Origin: an uncultured Chloroflexia bacterium
GTDB taxonomy: Bacteria > Chloroflexota > Limnocylindria > Limnocylindrales > CSP1-4
Direction of reading: 5' to 3'
Assembly (NCBI GenBank): GCA_963721015.1
Contig: CAVRHM010000006.1
Span: 914,154 to 978,153 of the forward strand
Length of the DNA stretch: 64,000 nucleotides
Numbering within the stretch: the stretch's first letter is position 1; each line of letters starts with the position of its first letter. The translations under genes were made by a program, and so were the position numbers. The notes under the pieces were generated by a model, which had not been told where the DNA came from, did not search any database, and was given only the letters and a program-made list of their open reading frames with translations. Positions 1-40,203 of the stretch are shown here, piece by piece.

Positions 1-589
1 TGCTCGGCCGGCGGGAGCAGCGTGCCGAGCACCTGCATGCCCTGGAGGAGGGCCTTGACGCTCGTGCTGTTGAGGCCCGCGACGACGGTGAACGTGTCGT
101 CCTCGGGATTCGAGGGTGATGACCGGGAACTGCGCCCCGGTGAAGCCCACGACCATGTCCACGTAGTCGCCGGTCTTGATGACCGTGCCGACGCCGGTGA
201 CCTGGTCGACTTCGACCGCCATACAGACCAGGCCGAGCGGACAGCTGATGTCCTGGACCGTGCCGGTGGACCCGAAGGTCGCGCTGGTGATCTGGGCACC
301 CTGGGTGACCGGCTGGCGGACGACCTTGCCGATGACCTGCGACGGGTCCTGGAAGGCCCCCGGGTCACGGGCGTCGACGGCAAGCGTCTGGGTCCGGACC
401 TGGCCGGCCGTGATCCGCGTCCCGAGCGGGATGTCCGCGGACGCGACGACCGTCGGAAGCTCCGTGGCGACCGCTTCGCGGATCGCCGCCGCCAGCGTCG
501 CCGCCACCCTGCAACAGGATGATGCCGACGAAGGCAAGGATGGCCAGGAAGACCCCGATAAGGAGGACCAGCCGATTAGAGCGCTTCAA
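1..589 (-). CDS. cpaB: Flp pilus assembly protein CpaB (SAF domain), 3' end outside the window, two apparent frameshifts (~500 and ~145)
   Basis: TTG start after GGGGAG. N-terminal TM helix MKRSNRLVLLIGVFLAILAFVGIILL. Shifted frame continues VVASADIPLGTRITADQV...VIGKVVRQPV...MAVEVDQVTGVGTVIKTGDYVDMV...LLQGMQVL, typical of CpaB. Lies next to the Flp pilins. Confidence 0.85.
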
Positions 590-876: not shown

Positions 877-1080
877 CTATTGGACGCTTTCCAGACCGCT
901 GCCGATGACGCTGAGCTTGTCGCTGACCTGCGATCCCATGAACAGGAGCGCGGCGATGGCGACGATGGCGATGAGTGCCAGGATGAGTGCGTATTCGGCG
1001 AGGCCCTGGCCGGATTCGTCATCCGAGTGCCAGTCCCTCAGGCGAAGGTAGCCGCGTACCAGAAGATCCATCGTATTCAC
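877..1080 (-). CDS. Flp family type IVb pilin 1
   Basis: GQG|LAEYALILALIAIVAI prepilin cleavage/Flp motif; SD AAGGAGG upstream. Confidence 0.92.
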   Translation of the reverse strand: MNTMDLLVRGYLRLRDWHSDDESGQGLAEYALILALIAIVAIAALLFMGSQVSDKLSVIGSGLESVQ

Positions 1081-1140
1081 CTCCTTCCTGTACGGCGATA
1101 TCGATCGTTCGGACGGAGATTCGCGCGCCCGACACCGGCA

Positions 1141-1168
1141 ACACTAGGGGCGGAAGGTCCCCCGTCAA
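1141..1168 (-). promoter_or_regulatory. Putative sigma70 promoter of pilin 1
   Basis: TTGACG-N16-TAGTGT on the minus strand. Confidence 0.45.
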
Positions 1169-1204
1169 TAGCCCGTACGGGTGGTCTGCGCGCATCGCCG
1201 CACC

Positions 1205-1248
1205 AGAAACGACGGTGACCGCCGAGCCATGCGGCCCGGCGGTCACCG
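1205..1248 (-). terminator. Intrinsic terminator after pilin 2
   Basis: Perfect 12-bp inverted repeat CGGTGACCGCCG/CGGCGGTCACCG followed by TCGTTTCT on the minus strand. Confidence 0.65.
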
Positions 1249-1266
1249 ATCAAGGTGGCGGATCGA

Positions 1267-1434
1267 CTAGATCGAGCTGCCGACGGTGCTGAGGATCGTG
1301 CTGACCTCGCCGCCCAGGAAGATCAGGGCGACGATCGCGACGATGGCGATGAGGGCGAGGATCAGCGCGTACTCCGCGAGACCCTGGCCGTCCTCGTCCC
1401 GGACCGAATTGATGAGAGCAAGAAGCTGCGTCAT
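1267..1434 (-). CDS. Flp family type IVb pilin 2 (55 aa, absent from the ORF track)
   Basis: Manual translation MTQLLALINSVRDEDGQGLAEYALILALIAIVAIVALIFLGGEVSTILSTVGSSI*; SD AAAGGAGG upstream. Confidence 0.92.
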   Translation of the reverse strand: MTQLLALINSVRDEDGQGLAEYALILALIAIVAIVALIFLGGEVSTILSTVGSSI

Positions 1435-1487
1435 GAAGTGGGTACCTCCTTTCCTCGAAAGCTCCCCGGCAGGCCGGAGGCCGGGTC

Positions 1488-1516
1488 ACGGTACGTAACC
1501 CCTCCAAGCCTGTCAA
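1488..1516 (-). promoter_or_regulatory. Putative sigma70 promoter of pilin 2
   Basis: TTGACA-N17-TACCGT on the minus strand. Confidence 0.6.
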
Positions 1517-1554
1517 CCTACCTAACCGCCCTATTCGGAACGGCCGGTGCACCG

Positions 1555-1591
1555 GGAAAACGAAAGACCGCCGGTCGGGTGACCGGCGGTC
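1555..1591 (-). terminator. Intrinsic terminator after pilin 3
   Basis: Perfect 11-bp stem GACCGCCGGTC/GACCGGCGGTC, 4-nt loop, followed by TTTCGTTTT on the minus strand. Confidence 0.75.
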
Positions 1592-1614
1592 CGCCGTTGC
1601 TGGTTGGCTTCGAC

Positions 1615-1785
1615 CTAGATCGAGCTGCCGACCGTGCTCAGGATCGTGCTGACTTCGCCACCGAGGAAGATCAGGGCGACGATCGCGACGATCGCGATGA
1701 GGGCGAGGATCAGCGCGTACTCCGCGAGACCCTGGCCGTCCTCGTCCCGACGAAGCGCGGCGAGGATGGTGTTGAACAGCGCCAT
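1615..1785 (-). CDS. Flp family type IVb pilin 3
   Basis: MALFNTILAALRRDEDGQG|LAEYALIL...; SD GGAGG upstream of ATG 1785; mature peptide identical to pilin 2. Confidence 0.92.
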   Translation of the reverse strand: MALFNTILAALRRDEDGQGLAEYALILALIAIVAIVALIFLGGEVSTILSTVGSSI

Positions 1786-1917
1786 GTGGCTGCCTCCTGG
1801 ATGAGTACTCACCCTCAGTTGAGGGCGGCGTCAATATAGGAAGCGAGCCCGCGGGCGGATACTGAGACGATGGTACCGCCACGTGCTTGGCTGCACCGGG
1901 ACCGGTCAGGGGGAGGC

Positions 1918-2106
1918 TCAGCCCCCGGTGGCCTGGTCGATGGCCTCGGCGATGGCCGCCAGGGCGTCCCCCACCGTGTCGCCGAACACGACCAGCCAGA
2001 CGATGGTCAGCACGGACGTCAGCCCCAGGATGAGGCCGTACTCCACGAGCCCCTGCCCGTGCCGGTCCAGGCGCCCGGACGGCCGTGGACGGCCGGCCAG
2101 GATCAC
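1918..2106 (-). CDS. Divergent Flp-like pilin 4
   Basis: GQG|LVEYGLILGL motif; GTG start overlaps the stop of the upstream kinase gene (GTGA). Confidence 0.75.
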   Translation of the reverse strand: MILAGRPRPSGRLDRHGQGLVEYGLILGLTSVLTIVWLVVFGDTVGDALAAIAEAIDQATGG

Positions 2107-3323
2107 GTCGCGGCGGCCTCCGGGGCCGGGTCGGGTGTCGCGGCATCGGCCAGCGGCGGCAGGTCCGCCACGAGGCGCACCTCACCGCCGTCGCTCAGCA
2201 GCTCCGCGGTGACCCCGATGGAGGTCGCTCGGGCCTGGATCTCCGTCCAGGTCGCCGGCGGCAGGGCGACGATGGAGCGCCGGACGGCCGCCTCGGCCGC
2301 TTCGCGCTCGACCTCGCGGCGTTCCTCGAGCATCGCGGCGAGGGCCGGCGGCAGGTCCGCCGCGGCCTCAGGCTCCGGGATGTCCGTGGCGCCCGCCGAC
2401 CGGACCGGATCGATGACGGCCCGCGAGGCGGCGACCCGTGCCTCCAGCTGCTCGCTCCAGTCGAGATGCAAGGTGACCACGTCGGGCGCGTCGGCGAGGT
2501 AGGCGGCCAAGGCTTCGTCGAGCATCCGGAACAGACCGCTCTCGAGCTCCATGGACAGCCGTCGGTCATTGCCCAGCGAGTCGAACTCGACCGGGACGCC
2601 CGCGCGGGTCGACCGCTCGCGCGTCGCCCGACGCAGTGTCGGGACGAGCCCCAGGTCGTCGAGGACCATGGGCCGGACGTCGAAGATGAACGACTTCGTC
2701 GCGTCCAGGGTCTGCTGGACCATGGCGATGAGGAGCCGCACTTCGCCGGCCGCCATCTCCGGATCGCGCTGGACGAGGCGCTCCACGATCTGGGCCTGGA
2801 GGACGATGTTGGTCAGGCTCTGGGCCGGCCCGTCGTGCATCGCCCGGGCGATCTCGCGGCGGAGGTCCTCCTGGGCGCCCAGGACGAGCCGTGACACCCC
2901 GGGGGAGGCGGGGTCGGCACCCGGACCTCCATCGGCGCCGGCACCGAGCGCAGCGGCGATCCGGGGGTCGATCGCACGGATGGCCTCGAGGTAGGCGGCC
3001 AGGGCGTCCCGATAGCGGGCCAGCGGCCGGCGCTTGCCCTCCAGGACCTCGACCTGGGTCTCCATCAGGGCCGCCCGCTTGGTCAGGGTCACGAGCGAGG
3101 TGGTCATGTCCAGGCGCGTGGCGGTATCGGTCTCGGGCGGGAGGGCGGCCAGCTTGTCCGCGGTCGCGCTGCGCCGACCCTCGTGGCGGACCGCCTCGGC
3201 CTTGGCCTGGGTGATGAGGAGGTCCACCTCCCCGAGCTCGGTGTCGAGCGTGACGAGGTCGTCCCCGATGCGGGTCGCCAGCGCGTCGAGGGTGGCCGGT
3301 GCGGTCGCGGAGTCGTCCGACAT
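2103..3323 (-). CDS. DegS-like cytoplasmic histidine kinase (HisKA_3) with degenerate ATPase domain
   Basis: Long N-terminal coiled coil; H-box AMHDGPAQSLTN; F-D-V-R-P-M-V-L-D-D-L-G-L; N and G boxes not recognisable. Confidence 0.8.
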   Translation of the reverse strand: MSDDSATAPATLDALATRIGDDLVTLDTELGEVDLLITQAKAEAVRHEGRRSATADKLAALPPETDTATRLDMTTSLVTLTKRAALMETQVEVLEGKRRPLARYRDALAAYLEAIRAIDPRIAAALGAGADGGPGADPASPGVSRLVLGAQEDLRREIARAMHDGPAQSLTNIVLQAQIVERLVQRDPEMAAGEVRLLIAMVQQTLDATKSFIFDVRPMVLDDLGLVPTLRRATRERSTRAGVPVEFDSLGNDRRLSMELESGLFRMLDEALAAYLADAPDVVTLHLDWSEQLEARVAASRAVIDPVRSAGATDIPEPEAAADLPPALAAMLEERREVEREAAEAAVRRSIVALPPATWTEIQARATSIGVTAELLSDGGEVRLVADLPPLADAATPDPAPEAAAT

Positions 3324-4069
3324 CAATCCTCGGGCATCCGGATCCAGCCCTGGCGCATCGCGTACACCACGGCCTGGGTCCGGTCGTTGACGGACAGCTT
3401 GCGAAGGATGGAGCTCATGTGGTTCTTGACCGTCTGCTCGCTGATCGACAGCGCGTAGGCGACCTGCTTGTTGGTCATGCCCTGGGCGATGTTGTCCAGG
3501 ATCTCGACCTCGCGCGGCGACAGCGGCGCGAAGATGGGAGCCGCCTCCTGGCCGTAGACCGCCAGCTCGCGGAACTCCTTGAGGACCCGCGAGGCGACGG
3601 CCGGCTTGGCGAAGACCTTGTCGTTGATGAGGAACTCACCAAGGGCGACCCGTCGGATGATCGTGACCAGGTCGTCCGGACCGACGTCCTTGAGGATGAA
3701 GGCGGCCGCGCCGGCCTTGATCGCATCGAACAGGGCGTCCTCGTCCTCGCTGACGGCCAGGACGATGATCCCGGCGCCGGCGACCTCGCGCTTGATGCGC
3801 TGGGTCGTCTCGATCCCGCCGGGTGACGGCAGTGACAGGTCCATGAGGACGATGTCGGGCGAGGTCTCCAGGGCCCGATCGACCGCGCTGCGCGCGTCGT
3901 CCGCCTCGCCGACCACCTCGAGGTCCGCCTCGCGCGCCAGGATGTTGGCGATGCCGACCCGGAAGAGGGCATGGTCATCCACGATGAGGATGCGGGTCGT
4001 CTCGCCTGCCCCGCGTCGATCGGGTCCGCCCCGTCGACGATCAGGGCCGCCGTATTCCATCGCGCTCAT
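3323..4069 (-). CDS. NarL/DegU-family response regulator (REC + LuxR HTH) with N-terminal YGGPDRR-GGPDRR extension
   Basis: ILIVDDH...VLMDL receiver; LSPREVEIL...GMTNKQVAYALSISEQTVKNHMSSILRKL HTH. Confidence 0.95.
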   Translation of the reverse strand: MSAMEYGGPDRRRGGPDRRGAGETTRILIVDDHALFRVGIANILAREADLEVVGEADDARSAVDRALETSPDIVLMDLSLPSPGGIETTQRIKREVAGAGIIVLAVSEDEDALFDAIKAGAAAFILKDVGPDDLVTIIRRVALGEFLINDKVFAKPAVASRVLKEFRELAVYGQEAAPIFAPLSPREVEILDNIAQGMTNKQVAYALSISEQTVKNHMSSILRKLSVNDRTQAVVYAMRQGWIRMPED

Positions 4070-4791
4070 CGGTTCTCCTCTACTCCCGTCATGGTCGTCG
4101 GGACCGCGAGTCGGATGACGGTACCGCCGTCCGGTCGTGATCGTACGTCGAGCCGACCGTGGATCAGCTCCGCTCGCTCCCGCATGAACTGCAAGCCGAA
4201 GGTCCGACGACCACGCGCGGTCGCGGCTTCGATGTCGAACCCGCGACCGTCGTCGCGGATCTCCAAGATATAAGGCCGATCATCGTCCCCGAGCTCGGTC
4301 CGCACCAGCACCTTCGTGGCGGCCGCGTGTTTCCGGACATTCTGCAGGGCTTCCTGGGTGACGCGCAGGACCACGATACGCACGTGGTCGTCCAGCTGGT
4401 CGGTGGGCGCGGTCAGGTCCGTCGCCACCTCGATGCCGGTGGCGGCACTGAAATCGGTCGCCGCGTCGCGGAGCGCCTCGTCGAGGCCCAGCTGGTCGAG
4501 GATCGATGGGCGGAGGTCGCTGATGATGTCGCGGATGGCCGTGAGCTCGCGCTCCAGCCGCTCGCGCAGGACGACCAGCTCGTCGGCGGCGGCGGCCGGG
4601 TCGGTCGCCTGCAGCCGCTCGACCAGCTCGATGCCGAAGATGGCGTTGGCCAGGGCCTGGGCCGGCCCGTCATGGATCTCCTGGGCGATGCGTGCGCGCT
4701 CCGCCTCTTGAGCCTCGGCGATGCGCTGCGTGACGTCGTCGGTCCCGGCGGGTGGAGCCTCCATCGACTTCGGAGTATAGGGGCCGGTCAT
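4066..4791 (-). CDS. Sensor-less histidine kinase (HisKA_3 + HATPase_c)
   Basis: ERARIAQEIHDGPAQ, QEALQNVRKHA, IRDDGRGF, FGLQFMRERA; ATG 4791 overlaps the upstream stop. Confidence 0.88.
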   Translation of the reverse strand: MTGPYTPKSMEAPPAGTDDVTQRIAEAQEAERARIAQEIHDGPAQALANAIFGIELVERLQATDPAAAADELVVLRERLERELTAIRDIISDLRPSILDQLGLDEALRDAATDFSAATGIEVATDLTAPTDQLDDHVRIVVLRVTQEALQNVRKHAAATKVLVRTELGDDDRPYILEIRDDGRGFDIEAATARGRRTFGLQFMRERAELIHGRLDVRSRPDGGTVIRLAVPTTMTGVEENR

Positions 4792-36482: not shown

Positions 36483-38626
36483 TCACTTGGCGTCCCGGAT
36501 GGCCGGCACGAGGAAGCCGGCCAGGCCGGCGACCACACTGACCAGCCCGAACGTCGCCAGGACGAACTGGACGCCGATGAGCTCGGCCAACACGCCGCCG
36601 ACGGCCATGGCGATGGCCATCGACCCGAAGACGAGCCAGAACCGGAAGCCGACGACCCGGCCCATCAGGGCGGCCGGGGTCCGTTCCTGGAAGAGGGCCT
36701 GGCTGGGGATGACGAACATCATGTTGGCGATCCCCGACCCGAAGGCGATCCCGATGGCCACGCCCAGGTTGCCGGTCAGCGCCAGGGCGGCCACGGCGAC
36801 CCCCCATGCCGCGTAGCCGACGCTGATCATCCGGCCCTTGGCCAGGCGCGCGCCGACGAGGCCGATGACGAAGCCGCCCAGCAGGTTGCCGGCGCTGGTC
36901 GCGCCCTCCAGGAAGCCGTAGGCGGCCACGGCCTGGGACCGCCCGTACACGACGGCCGCGTAGGTCGGCATGAGCGCCGTGATCGCGCCGACGCTGAGCT
37001 GGGCCACGGACGCCTGGATGGTGTTCGCCCACAGCGTCAATTCGCTGCGCAGGAAGGTGTAGCCGGCGCGCAGCTCGGCGACGAAGCCCTGGCCGGCGCC
37101 CGTCTCGACCTCGGCGTCTTCGGCGGCGTCTTCGGCGGTCGCCGCGCGGACGACCATCGTGCTCAGCAGGAGGGCCGACCCGATGTAGGTCGCCGCATCC
37201 AGCCAGAACGCGACGGGCAGGGCGCTGCCCAGGGCCGCGACGAACAGGGCTGCCAGCGGGAAGCCGACGACGTCGGCCAGGGTCTCGCCCACCCACAGGG
37301 CGGAGTTGGCGGTCACGAGCTCGTCCTTGTCGACGAGCTGGGGCAGGATCGCCACCCGGGCCGGCCGGAAGAAGATCGAGATGGAGGTCATGACGAACAC
37401 GAGCGGGTAGACGAACAGCGGGTTGGTCACGAGGGCGATCGGGACGATCAGGACGACCGCCGCGCGCAGGAGGTCGCTGACGATGAGGACCTCACGCCGG
37501 TCCCAGCGGTCGACCAGGGTGCCCGCGATGGGGCTGACGATGAGGTTCGGGACGAACGCGGCCACGAACACGAACGCCGAGGCGATCGGCGAGCCGGTCA
37601 CGATGAGGACGGCGGTCGCCAGGGCGACCTGATGGATGCGGTCGCCGAACAGCGAGATGAGCTGGCCGGCCCACAGCGCCGTGAACGAGCCGTTGAGGGC
37701 CAGGCGGACGTACGGGTGGCGGCGGACCCGCTCCACCGCCTCCGTGGATGGCCGCGGGAGGGCGATGACCGGCGCGCCGGGGGCCGACGACGCGCAGTCG
37801 GCACGCCGGCCGCCTCGAACGCCGCGGCGATCGTCGCATCGTCGAGCCGGCCGGCCGCCGACGGTGCCGGGAGCGGCGCGAGGGCCGGCGACTTGATGAG
37901 CGGTCCCTGCGATCCGAGCATCACCGGCCGCTGCAGGCCGGCGGCAGGGTTCAGGGCCGGGGCGAGGCCGGTCTCGGCCTGGATGCCCGTGCCACCATCC
38001 GGGCGCGGCAGTCGGGTCGAGCTGGCCAGGCCAACGAGCCGGCGCCGGATGGCCTCCTCCTCGTGGGCCTCCAGGACGGTCGGGATGCGGACGACGCTGG
38101 CGAACAGGAAGAACCCGAGGCCCAGGGACAGGAACACATCGCCCAGCGATGCCACGTTGTTGAACGGCGGGACGGGGATGGGGATGACGTCGCCGAAGAT
38201 CAGGCCACGCAGCAGGAAGTCCGCCGCGTCGGCGTCCTCCACGACGACGTGGAGGTTGGAGATGACCTGCGACGGGTCGTAGCCTGCCGCGACCAGCGCC
38301 GGCTCCCAGATCGGCATGTAGCCGCCGTTGAGGAGGATGACGACGGCGTTGAGCAGGATGCCGACGAACGCGAGGCCCAGGCCCGGGTAGCCGCGGTTGA
38401 CCCACAGCCCCACCAGCAGCAGCCCGAAGCTGGCGGCCAGGAGCGGGACGCGGAGCACGTCCGCGATCGGGAGGCCGGCATCGAGCAGCGCCTCCGTCCC
38501 GAACCGGATGATGACGGCCGCGAACAGGAGCGGGACGAGGCGGAGCTGGATGGCGCCGAGGTTCACGAGCCGGCCGCCCGCGAGCAGGCCGAGCACGAGG
38601 CCGAGGATGATGCCGGCGATCAACAC
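36483..38626 (-). CDS. DUF5317-like membrane domain fused to an MFS transporter (one frameshift at ~37810)
   Basis: ORF 37598..38626: GLLAGG, LLNAVVILLNGGYMP, FGDVIP, SLGDVF. ORF 36483..38405: LWAGQLISLFGDRIH, GTLVDRWDRR, LMGRV. No start codon or SD seen at the MFS junction. Confidence 0.72.
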
Positions 38627-38756
38627 GGGCGAAGCCTGGGGGTTCGGCGCTCCGTCACCGCGACATCATGCTGGAGCGCGAACGTCGCCGTCCGCTCGGG
38701 GACCCGAGGGCGGGACGGGAGAGGGAACGCGGGGCCGCGGTCGGGCGGCCGGGCGC

Positions 38757-40203
38757 TCAGGCCTGTTCGGGCGCCGCCGCGGTCGCCGACGCGGTGGCCG
38801 GCAGGGCGGGCACGGCCGGGATCGTCGTGGCCGTCGGGCTCGGGTCGGGCGCTCCGCCGGTCATCCGCGCAGCGGCCTGGCCGATGAGCGGGATGGGCCG
38901 CGGCTGGACGGTCCGGCCGGGGTCGGCCACGCCCTCGACGTGGTGGGTCCGGACGAACGCATCGACGACGACCGGGTCGAACTGGATGCCGGCGAACTTG
39001 CGCAGCTCGGCGAGGGCCTGCTCGGCGGTCAACGGGGTCATCCGGTACGGGCGGGCCGCCGTCATCGCCTCGAAGGCGTCCGCGACGTGGAGGATGCGCG
39101 CGAGCTTCGGGGATCTCGTCGCCGATGAGGCGGTCCGGGTAGCCCGAGCCGTTGTACCACTCGTGGTGGTGGCGGATGATCGGCAGCTCGGGCGCCAACT
39201 TCGTGACCGGGGCGATGATCTCCGCGCCCAGGACCGGGTGCGCGTTCATGATCATCCGCTCCTCGCGGTTGAGGCGCTCCTGCTTGAGCAGGACGTTGTC
39301 CGGTACGCCGATCTTGCCGACGTCGTGGAGCAGACCGCCCCACTCGAGCGCTTCCACCTCGGCGTCGTTGACGTGCATGACTTGCCCGATGTCGACCGCG
39401 ATCTCCTTGACCCGGACGCTGTGCATCGCCGTGAACGGATCGCGCTTGTCCACCGCCTCGGCCAGCGCGCCGATCGTCTGGGTGAACATCTCGCGCATCT
39501 CGACGAAGCGCCGGTATGCCATCCGCGTCGAGTACAGCGGGATGGCAAACAGAGCGGTTGCCCACCACTGCACGACGTAGATCACGGACATCAACCACGC
39601 TAGCGGCGCGAGGGCAAAGACGCCGCCCATGATTCCTCGGATGTCGCCGATGAACACGTCTCGGGGCGATTGGCCGGTTCGCAGCCCGATTGCGGTGGAA
39701 ACGAGCGCCAAGTTGCCCACGATGAAGATCACGGCTGCGGCCATTGCCGACGCGAAGTCAGACGCAACACCCGGAAGGTACTCAAGCCATACGTGGCGGG
39801 TCACACCGGCAACGACCGCGGGTAGAACCAGTGCCGCGTGGTTGGCAAGAGTTCCATACCAGGGGACCTTTCCCCTGATCTCGCGAAGCTCCGTGGTGCC
39901 GATTAGTGCGACCCAGCCCGCGACGGCAGGCCCACCGAGGAACATCGAGCCCATGATCGGAGCGATCGCGACAGCCTGTTGTGTGCCTCGGGGCAACTGA
40001 ACAGGGAACGCCGAACTCACGAGTGTGAGCCCGATCCAATAGGCAACCCCCAGGGATGTCGCCACGCCCGCTGGGAGTGTGCGGGCCCCGTCGAGCTGGA
40101 TCGCGATAGCTGCAGACGGTTCAAAGAGAATTGTCGAGGCCATTAGCGCCAAGGCGCCAATGGCCACGACCGCGATGATGTACAGCTTCAATGAGACCGG
40201 CAT
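38757..40203 (-). CDS. Membrane-bound HD-GYP domain protein (putative c-di-GMP phosphodiesterase), frameshift near 39105
   Basis: About 6-7 N-terminal TM helices; DKRDPFTAMHSVRV, LLHDVGKIG, HHEWYNGSGYP, ILHVADAFEAMTAARPYR, QFDP. Confidence 0.9.

Follow-up and report, generated by a model that had tools for sequence, protein, structure and literature searches.

The regulator gene and its N-terminal tail

The stretch of DNA analysed here (the window) comprises 64,000 nucleotides of contig CAVRHM010000006.1 from the metagenome-assembled genome GCA_963721015.1, an uncultured bacterium of the Limnocylindria (Chloroflexota), and carries at its left end part of a tad locus for Flp pili. Within this locus, a gene for a NarL-type response regulator encodes an arginine-rich N-terminal tail that resembles the cyclic di-GMP (c-di-GMP)-binding region of Cle proteins, and it is this tail that is considered below. 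The genes for a histidine kinase, the regulator and a second, kinase-like protein (the pseudo-kinase) and four flp pilin genes form one co-directional chain of overlapping genes (Table 1). To the left of the window the tad locus goes on with genes for a receiver-fused CpaE/TadZ-like ATPase (Rec-ParA), CpaF/TadA, TadB and TadC, and the regulator lies upstream of pilin and assembly genes within a complete tad locus. An earlier reading of the window, made from the letters alone (the sequence-only reading), had placed the regulator upstream of the pilin genes, and the two indeed belong to the same gene chain with the pseudo-kinase gene in between. In the reading favoured here, the regulator gene is co-transcribed with the genes for its kinase, the pseudo-kinase and the pilins, and transcription of the Flp/Tad locus is most likely under its control.

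The description of the protein as a NarL-type transcription factor was borne out by the finding of a receiver domain and a GerE/LuxR-type helix-turn-helix (HTH) domain, and by alignment with VraR and NarL, which showed an intact phospho-acceptor pocket (Asp, acidic pair and Lys). The residues concerned – D31, D32, D77 and K127 – align with the catalytic residues of VraR and NarL and are invariant in orthologues. Judged from its domains and alignments, the regulator is an orthodox NarL/FixJ-type response regulator that should be phosphorylatable. The closest solved structures are those of VraR and NarL (7ve6, 4gvp and 1a04), which align with the receiver and HTH domains over their full length (E ~1e-37) but differ from the regulator in three respects. 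First, their alignments, like that of DevR, begin only at query residue 23–26, so that they have no counterpart to its tail. Second, the linker between receiver and HTH domain (residues ~144–181, window 3527-3640) is ~13 residues longer than in VraR and NarL, the extra segment being invariant and the linker as a whole, KPAVASRVLKEFRELAVYGQEAAPIFAPLSPRE, almost fully so; AlphaFold2 predicts an extra helix at residues 156–171 followed by a low-confidence stretch. Third, the Thr/Ser switch position at the end of strand beta4, which is Ser in NarL and Thr in VraR, is occupied throughout the orthologue group by an invariant alanine, A105 (window 3755-3757); signal propagation following phosphorylation may be atypical.

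The 248-aa open reading frame (ORF) begins with MSAMEYGGPDRRRGGPDRRGAGETTRILIVDDH. Its ATG shares the sequence ATGA with the stop codon of the kinase gene upstream and is preceded by a Shine-Dalgarno sequence; past the motif, in-frame initiation could occur no earlier than at the GTG of V31, which lies within strand beta1. Because of the GAGGAG sequence, the ATGA overlap and the absence of a later usable start, the start codon is secure and the motif must be translated; a start downstream of the motif had been named by the sequence-only reading as grounds for its refutation. That reading had located the 19 residues MSAMEYGGPDRRRGGPDRR exactly, ahead of the receiver domain.

The core of the tail, Y6-R19, is a compact tandem in which Y-G-G-P-D-R-R is followed by R-G-G-P-D-R-R. 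The codons differ between the two repeats in the window, so that the tandem is not a recent DNA duplication. Within 9 residues of the tail there are five Arg plus Gly and Pro, one RGG triplet among them, and conserved acids (D/E10, D17 and an acid at +3 or +4 after the second RR) bring its net charge down to ~+2. AlphaFold2 gave a predicted local distance difference test (pLDDT) score of ~30 for residues 1–20, with strand beta1 beginning at 25 and a normal receiver fold following, which is weak evidence that residues 1–24 are unfolded when no ligand is bound, as is the apo form of the Cle arginine-rich region (ARR). The tail is without structural counterpart, since solved NarL-type regulators align only from query residue 20–27. 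In a six-frame translation of the whole 3.39-Mb genome (71.6% GC), GP[DE][RK]R occurred 371 times and [YF]xGP[DE][RK]R 4 times, 3 of these in junk frames, which leaves the regulator tail as the genome's sole genuine match to the longer pattern. A tandem of GP[DE][RK]R within 12 residues was found twice, in the regulator tail and in a 62-aa junk frame. Readings of the tail as a Tat signal, an AT-hook, a PilZ RxxxR motif or a VpsT W[FLM][TS]R motif were ruled out by the sequence itself; the only Trp of the regulator is W242, in the GWIRM of its C-terminal tail.

Table 1. Positions of the regulator, its tail and associated features in the window.
Feature	Position	Strand	Basis or remark
Complete NarL-type response regulator gene, 248 aa	3323..4069	-	ORF and Pfam
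N-terminal residues 1-19, MSAMEYGGPDRRRGGPDRR; core Y6-R19	4013..4069	-	ORF translation
Whole N-terminal tail, residues 1-24, predicted disordered; includes conserved acid E23 (RRxxGE)	3998..4069	-	
Shine-Dalgarno sequence GAGGAG, inside 3' end of kinase gene	4075..4080	-	5 nt upstream of ATG at 4069
Receiver domain, residues 27-139	3653..3991	-	Pfam PF00072, E = 5.9e-24
GerE/LuxR-type HTH DNA-binding domain, residues 182-237	3359..3526	-	Pfam PF00196, E = 1.4e-22
Sensor-less cytoplasmic histidine kinase, 241 aa, HisKA_3 + HATPase_c	4066..4791	-	Translationally coupled to regulator
HisKA_3 pseudo-kinase, 407 aa, between regulator and pilin genes	2103..3326	-	Pfam: HisKA_3 only
Four tandem Flp/Fap pilin genes	1918-2106, 1615-1812, 1267-1434, 877-1080 (877..2106)	-	Pfam Flp_Fap, below curated cut-off
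Start of cpaB (SAF + RcpC)	1..537	-	
HD_5/HD-GYP-like gene	38620-40203	-	Downstream of riboswitch
c-di-GMP-II riboswitch, one in genome, 65.6 bits	40464-40547	-	Upstream of HD_5/HD-GYP-like gene

Conservation and decay of the tail within the family

The 120 closest database homologues of the regulator, from Candidatus Limnocylindria metagenomes, shared 89–96% identity with it, and in these the 12-residue core GP[ED]RRRGGPDRR was invariant, with variation in residues 1–5 and 20–24. A back-translated DNA pattern for GP[DE]RRRGGPDRR, run on 401 genomes of the class with the reversed pattern as a control, matched in 70 genomes, all 70 of them in the window's own family, with one copy in 68 and two copies in 2; the reversed control gave 0 matches. 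The regulator itself is present as a single-copy orthologue in 126 of the 141 family genomes (75 of the 78 high-quality ones), full-length orthologues being 75–92% identical, and the core [YF]xGP[DE]RRRGGPDRR is retained in most genera of this Limnocylindria family. The aromatic position of the first unit was Y or F in 69 of 70 tail variants, and an acid followed the second RR at +3 or +4 in 70/70 close variants. Of 129 orthologue sequences, 45% had RRxx[DE] and the majority of the others RRxxG[ED], an acid at +3 or +4 being present in essentially all. D10/E10 and D17 were invariant to the same degree as the arginines, and the linker GGP was invariant. The invariant positions made use of all synonymous codons for Gly, Pro, Arg and Asp among 129 distinct nucleotide versions, so that it is the peptide and not the RNA that is under selection; an RNA-level explanation is ruled out by the free variation of third codon positions. 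The tail is therefore real, translated, strongly selected and family-specific, and conservation of the motif in orthologues next to flp genes, which the sequence-only reading had named as a check, was confirmed.

Beyond the closest relatives, 40 loci were sampled from the family with deliberate enrichment for genomes lacking the exact tail pattern. The gene order kinase, regulator, pseudo-kinase and 1–4 flp genes was kept wherever the contig reached, including at loci with decayed tails; flp copies (1–4) followed the pseudo-kinase in 33 of the 40 relatives, and in the other 7 the contig ended earlier or the locus was atypical. The canonical form of the tail in this sample was [YF]xG[P/Q/V/A/S][DE]RRRGGPDRR. 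Some tails had an altered second half (GGQDRR, GNSDRR, TMPDRR or SAPDRR), others were decayed (YAGPERRRPGPGGR, YSGPERRRRLGEER, ETAERRRGAVADR, RPERRRSGGQRDED and SGERRRGERR), and in one genus the tail was wholly lost, the [DE]RRR unit being the last part to vanish. The tandem was found in every major clade when a maximum-likelihood tree was built from the concatenated operon proteins. The tail is therefore an ancestral trait of the family that could be dispensed with repeatedly: five changes are required on this tree to explain the decayed forms, and well-supported branches force at least three of them. An ancestral yet repeatedly lost tail is what an accessory input, as opposed to a core element of the structure, would be expected to show.

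A scan for the compact tandem across 185,579 species genomes gave at least 120 loci. Among the matches listed, ~110 were the same regulator, and those in Actinoplanes, Frankia, Brevundimonas, Polyangiaceae, Acidimicrobiaceae and Solirubrobacteraceae were rejected as junk reading frames. A 60%-identical NarL-type homologue (P0128; L173 5001-5753) contains the partial motif RDPRGRAPDRR. Its neighbours are numerous small genes that lack annotation, neither kinase nor flp genes being close by, and because of this unrelated gene context it is uninformative on the age of the tail. One contig labelled Gemmatimonadales (L060) ends in a regulator near-identical to the Limnocylindria protein, tail included, which probably reflects a binning error rather than gene transfer.

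Candidate functions of the tail

The sequence-only reading had proposed that the motif is a tandem Cle-type site for c-di-GMP. Its description of the Cle motif was correct. In the Caulobacter crescentus Cle proteins (CleA-E) and their kin, the motif is a tandem [Y/F]XGP[D/E][R/K]R that follows the CheY-like receiver on its C-terminal side, with an Arg before it and an Asp after it, and nearly all such receivers are alphaproteobacterial (Nesper et al., PMC5677366). The conserved switch residues of Cle proteins are dispensable for their activation (PMC5677366); the Ala at the switch position of the regulator may be an ancillary parallel. The nuclear magnetic resonance structure of the CleD peptide, AYVGPDRRRFNSADYKGPRKRKAD, in complex with an intercalated c-di-GMP dimer shows Y150 as a platform, D154, R155 and R156 hydrogen-bonded to Gua1 and Gua3, Y163 stacked on Gua4, and R169 and D172, in a helical turn, in contact with Gua2 and Gua4, with 11 residues between the DRR and [R/K]RxxD elements (Hee et al., PMC7382256). 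The R169-xx-D172 turn is described as required, and in the minimal CleD peptide Y163A caused a 25-fold and G165A a 43-fold loss, with no binding for R169A (PMC7382256).

Like the Cle ARR, the regulator tail is a short, disordered, Arg-rich peptide directly adjoining a receiver domain. Between its Y6-G-G-P-D-R-R-R and CleD Y150-V-G-P-D-R-R-R, 7 of the 8 positions agree, only the X position differing, and the first unit has every residue of the first contact element (D154, R155 and R156, together with Y150); the second unit, G-P-D-R-R, conforms to xGP[DE][RK]R and has a conserved acid after it. The first half of the proposed tandem Cle-type site matches CleD Y150-R157, and the second departs from the Cle geometry. 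The repeat period is 7 instead of 13, 5 residues (R13-D17) separate R12 from R18 where CleD has 11, the Y163-bearing loop is missing with an invariant Arg (R13) at the aromatic position, and the acid after the second RR stands at +4 (RRGAGE) and not at +3. Further, the predicted alpha4 of the regulator (residues 110–118, EDALFDAIK) has no Arg, whereas CleD has R113; the tail is N-terminal to the receiver and the Cle motif C-terminal; its host is a phosphorylatable, DNA-binding NarL-type regulator in contrast to the stand-alone CheY-like Cle proteins of the flagellar motor; and it occurs in Chloroflexota, as opposed to mostly Alphaproteobacteria. A Cle-type ARR with canonical spacing was found in 0 of 301 Chloroflexota genomes and not in the window's own genome. 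In view of the geometry of the second half-site, the N-terminal position, the DNA-binding host and the other phylum, the regulator is not a member of the Cle family, and by sequence comparison its tail is at most a compact, convergent analogue of the Cle ARR.

Of the functions considered, binding of c-di-GMP is the best single hypothesis, although we hold it tentatively and at somewhat less than even confidence. Under this hypothesis, the tail would be a compact, independently evolved analogue of the ARR in which guanine bases are recognised by the two [DE]-R-R units, with Arg at the Hoogsteen edge and Asp or Glu at N1/N2, and Y6 supplies a stacking platform; the ligand would be c-di-GMP, probably as an intercalated dimer, which two regulator molecules might share. 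The conserved acids suit guanine recognition by Arg and Asp in this manner, and since D10/E10 and D17 vary no more than the arginines do, base-specific recognition is favoured over plain polyanion binding. In the CheY fold, beta1 begins and alpha5 ends on one and the same face, and an N-terminal tail would therefore lie near both the attachment point of the Cle ARR and the linker to the DNA-binding domain. Ligand binding may thus fold the tail beside this N- and C-terminal face of the receiver and bias dimerisation or release of the DNA-binding domain, and pilin expression could integrate the input of the kinase with the level of c-di-GMP, amounting to dual control of pilin transcription by phosphorylation and c-di-GMP.

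The genomic setting agrees with this hypothesis. The window's own genome has ~13–15 GGDEF genes, besides the HD_5/HD-GYP-like gene and the c-di-GMP-II riboswitch of Table 1, and GGDEF genes were present in 24 of 24 relatives tested, at 3–16 per genome. The PilZ domain (PF07238) was absent from the regulator, from the whole of its own genome and from 11 of 12 relatives, and in GGDEF-rich genomes without PilZ, non-canonical protein receptors for c-di-GMP are to be expected. In the fullest form of the hypothesis, the 14-residue tail Y-x-G-P-[DE]-RRR-GGP-D-RR would be a natural minimal c-di-GMP module of independent origin, forming part of a two-input switch for Tad pili and serving as a principal c-di-GMP protein receptor of a widespread, PilZ-less family; this larger claim is possible but rather doubtful.

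Several of the present results weigh against c-di-GMP binding. Besides the differences from the Cle ARR listed above, the other placement, regulator class and phylum, with no canonical ARR in the 301 Chloroflexota genomes, indicate that the likeness is convergent, and a match of seven residues to CleD can mislead. The tail has decayed at least three to five times in lineages that retain the operon and 3–14 GGDEF genes, and a comparison of 29 intact with 11 degenerate loci gave no column of the regulator body, kinase or pseudo-kinase that co-varies with tail state. No clean relation between tail state and GGDEF gene number was seen across 24 genomes: the genome in which the tail is lost has the fewest GGDEF genes (3), and the other degenerate lineages have 7–14.

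Direct action of c-di-GMP on regulators of this class has precedents. VpsT uses a W[F/L/M][T/S]R motif in its receiver, which is not present in the regulator. VpsT of Vibrio cholerae and DevR of Mycobacterium smegmatis are LuxR/NarL-type regulators that bind c-di-GMP, DevR reportedly through its C-terminal domain (PMC12564702). Both share with the regulator the combination of a receiver and a LuxR-type HTH, and DevR (3c3w) is among the closest solved structures (E = 5.8e-30), but neither has an N-terminal tail and their c-di-GMP sites lie elsewhere. With regard to the locus, the nearest parallel by description is PprB, which has a LuxR-type HTH and adjoins flp-tad genes; we know of no Arg-rich tail in PprB and of no report that it binds c-di-GMP. 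PprA-PprB, the two-component system of Pseudomonas aeruginosa to which it belongs, controls type IVb pili (10.1101/639112). As in the window, a response regulator and a kinase are encoded beside a flp-tad locus, the regulator being the presumed activator of pilin transcription, but the phyla are unrelated and the window locus has two HisKA_3 proteins, one of them a pseudo-kinase.

Were c-di-GMP binding correct, the ARR principle of a linear, graftable peptide would extend beyond CheY-like motor regulators and beyond Proteobacteria, and would be workable N-terminally and at a much shorter length, which is relevant to the design of c-di-GMP-sequestering peptides. The Cle ARR peptides are a known kind of module; a compact N-terminal variant on a NarL-type regulator would possibly be a new one. 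The regulator would also be the first candidate c-di-GMP protein effector in the Limnocylindria, an abundant uncultured soil and freshwater lineage, and, as a transcription factor that can be phosphorylated, would connect the expression of Tad pili with c-di-GMP. A literature search found no papers on an N-terminal ARR, on CleD together with NarL or on Limnocylindria pili. Should the tail not bind c-di-GMP, the pilus operon's most conserved regulator would still have in it a feature that is under strong selection and calls for an explanation.

The strongest rival, which we consider unlikely, is that the tail is a regulatory peptide for protein-protein or intramolecular contacts, without a nucleotide ligand, that sets partner specificity or auto-inhibition. 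Candidate acidic surfaces would be those of the sensor-less kinase, the pseudo-kinase, the receiver-fused CpaE/TadZ and the regulator's own domains. Such docking would suit a locus in which two unusual HisKA_3 proteins flank the regulator in every relative and the tad operon contains a third receiver protein; the disorder of the tail resembles that of many docking motifs, its geometry departs from that of the Cle ARR, and the conservation of the regulator (75–92%), far above that of the kinases (45–69%), suggests many interaction constraints. However, the absence of columns co-varying with tail loss in the kinase, pseudo-kinase or regulator body, as found in what is a low-power test, tells against docking as well, the operon partners are unchanged where the tail has decayed, and the residue-for-residue match to CleD Y150-R157 is left unexplained.

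It is improbable that the tail is a nucleic-acid arm, in which Arg and Gly would contact the DNA minor groove, or RNA or a G-quadruplex in the manner of RGG motifs, and so aid the LuxR-type HTH. N-terminal arms on transcription factors are known, and the present tail, with its arginines, Gly and Pro and its RGG triplet, is attached to a DNA-binding regulator; yet it adjoins the receiver instead of the HTH domain, it lacks the RGRP core of AT-hooks, and its three invariant or near-invariant acids, with the low net charge that results, are atypical for DNA arms.

It is quite improbable that the ligand is a guanine nucleotide other than c-di-GMP, for example (p)ppGpp, GTP, pGpG or some mixed cyclic dinucleotide. 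Paired Asp/Glu-Arg-Arg units would suit guanine recognition generally, and the shorter spacing might accommodate a ligand smaller than an intercalated c-di-GMP dimer. To our knowledge, there is no precedent for this motif with other nucleotides, and c-di-GMP machinery is abundant in genomes of the family. The peptide derived from CleD is, moreover, highly specific for c-di-GMP according to its authors (PMC7382256).

Finally, the idea of a functionless low-complexity by-product of high GC, prompted by how common Arg/Gly/Pro/Asp-rich peptides are at 71.6% GC (as in the 371 occurrences of GP[DE][RK]R) and by the loss of the tail in some lineages, can be very nearly dismissed, given that 12–14 residues are strictly invariant in most genera despite saturating synonymous change, with freely varying flanks, and that the tandem form is unique in the genome.

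Other features of the window and the tad locus

The sequence-only reading had further suggested that the regulator is the output of an HD-GYP circuit at 38–40 kb. The riboswitch and the HD-GYP-like gene of this region (Table 1) do lie on the same contig as the regulator, and the strongest riboswitch of relatives was likewise on the regulator's contig, 15–90 kb away, in 10 of 12, but this is regional synteny only and no evidence for the functional link, which is speculative. One relative (G403) had 14 riboswitch-like matches, mostly below the family cut-off.

Within the operon, the family-wide identity of the regulator contrasts with that of the proteins encoded on either side of it, at 45–63% for the kinase and 45–69% for the pseudo-kinase. 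An ATPase domain was not detected by Pfam in the 407-aa HisKA_3 protein. Further upstream of the regulator lie the kinase gene and two GT-C transferase genes. At the left edge of the window, the cpaB frame seems to switch near position ~100 (~90–140), where one frame becomes Arg/Pro-rich junk and the other continues as the plausible CpaB sequence DDTFTVVAGLNSTSVKALLQGMQVLG, and tadC, just left of the window, likewise appears as two ORFs of 209 and 176 aa; the breaks in cpaB and tadC stem either from misassembly of the metagenome-assembled genome or from genuine frameshifts. About 10 kb to the left (genome ~905000-913100), the CpaE/TadZ-like ParA/MinD ATPase is fused to a full receiver (PF00072, E = 1e-28) and may, next to the regulator, be a further protein that the two HisKA_3 proteins phosphorylate.

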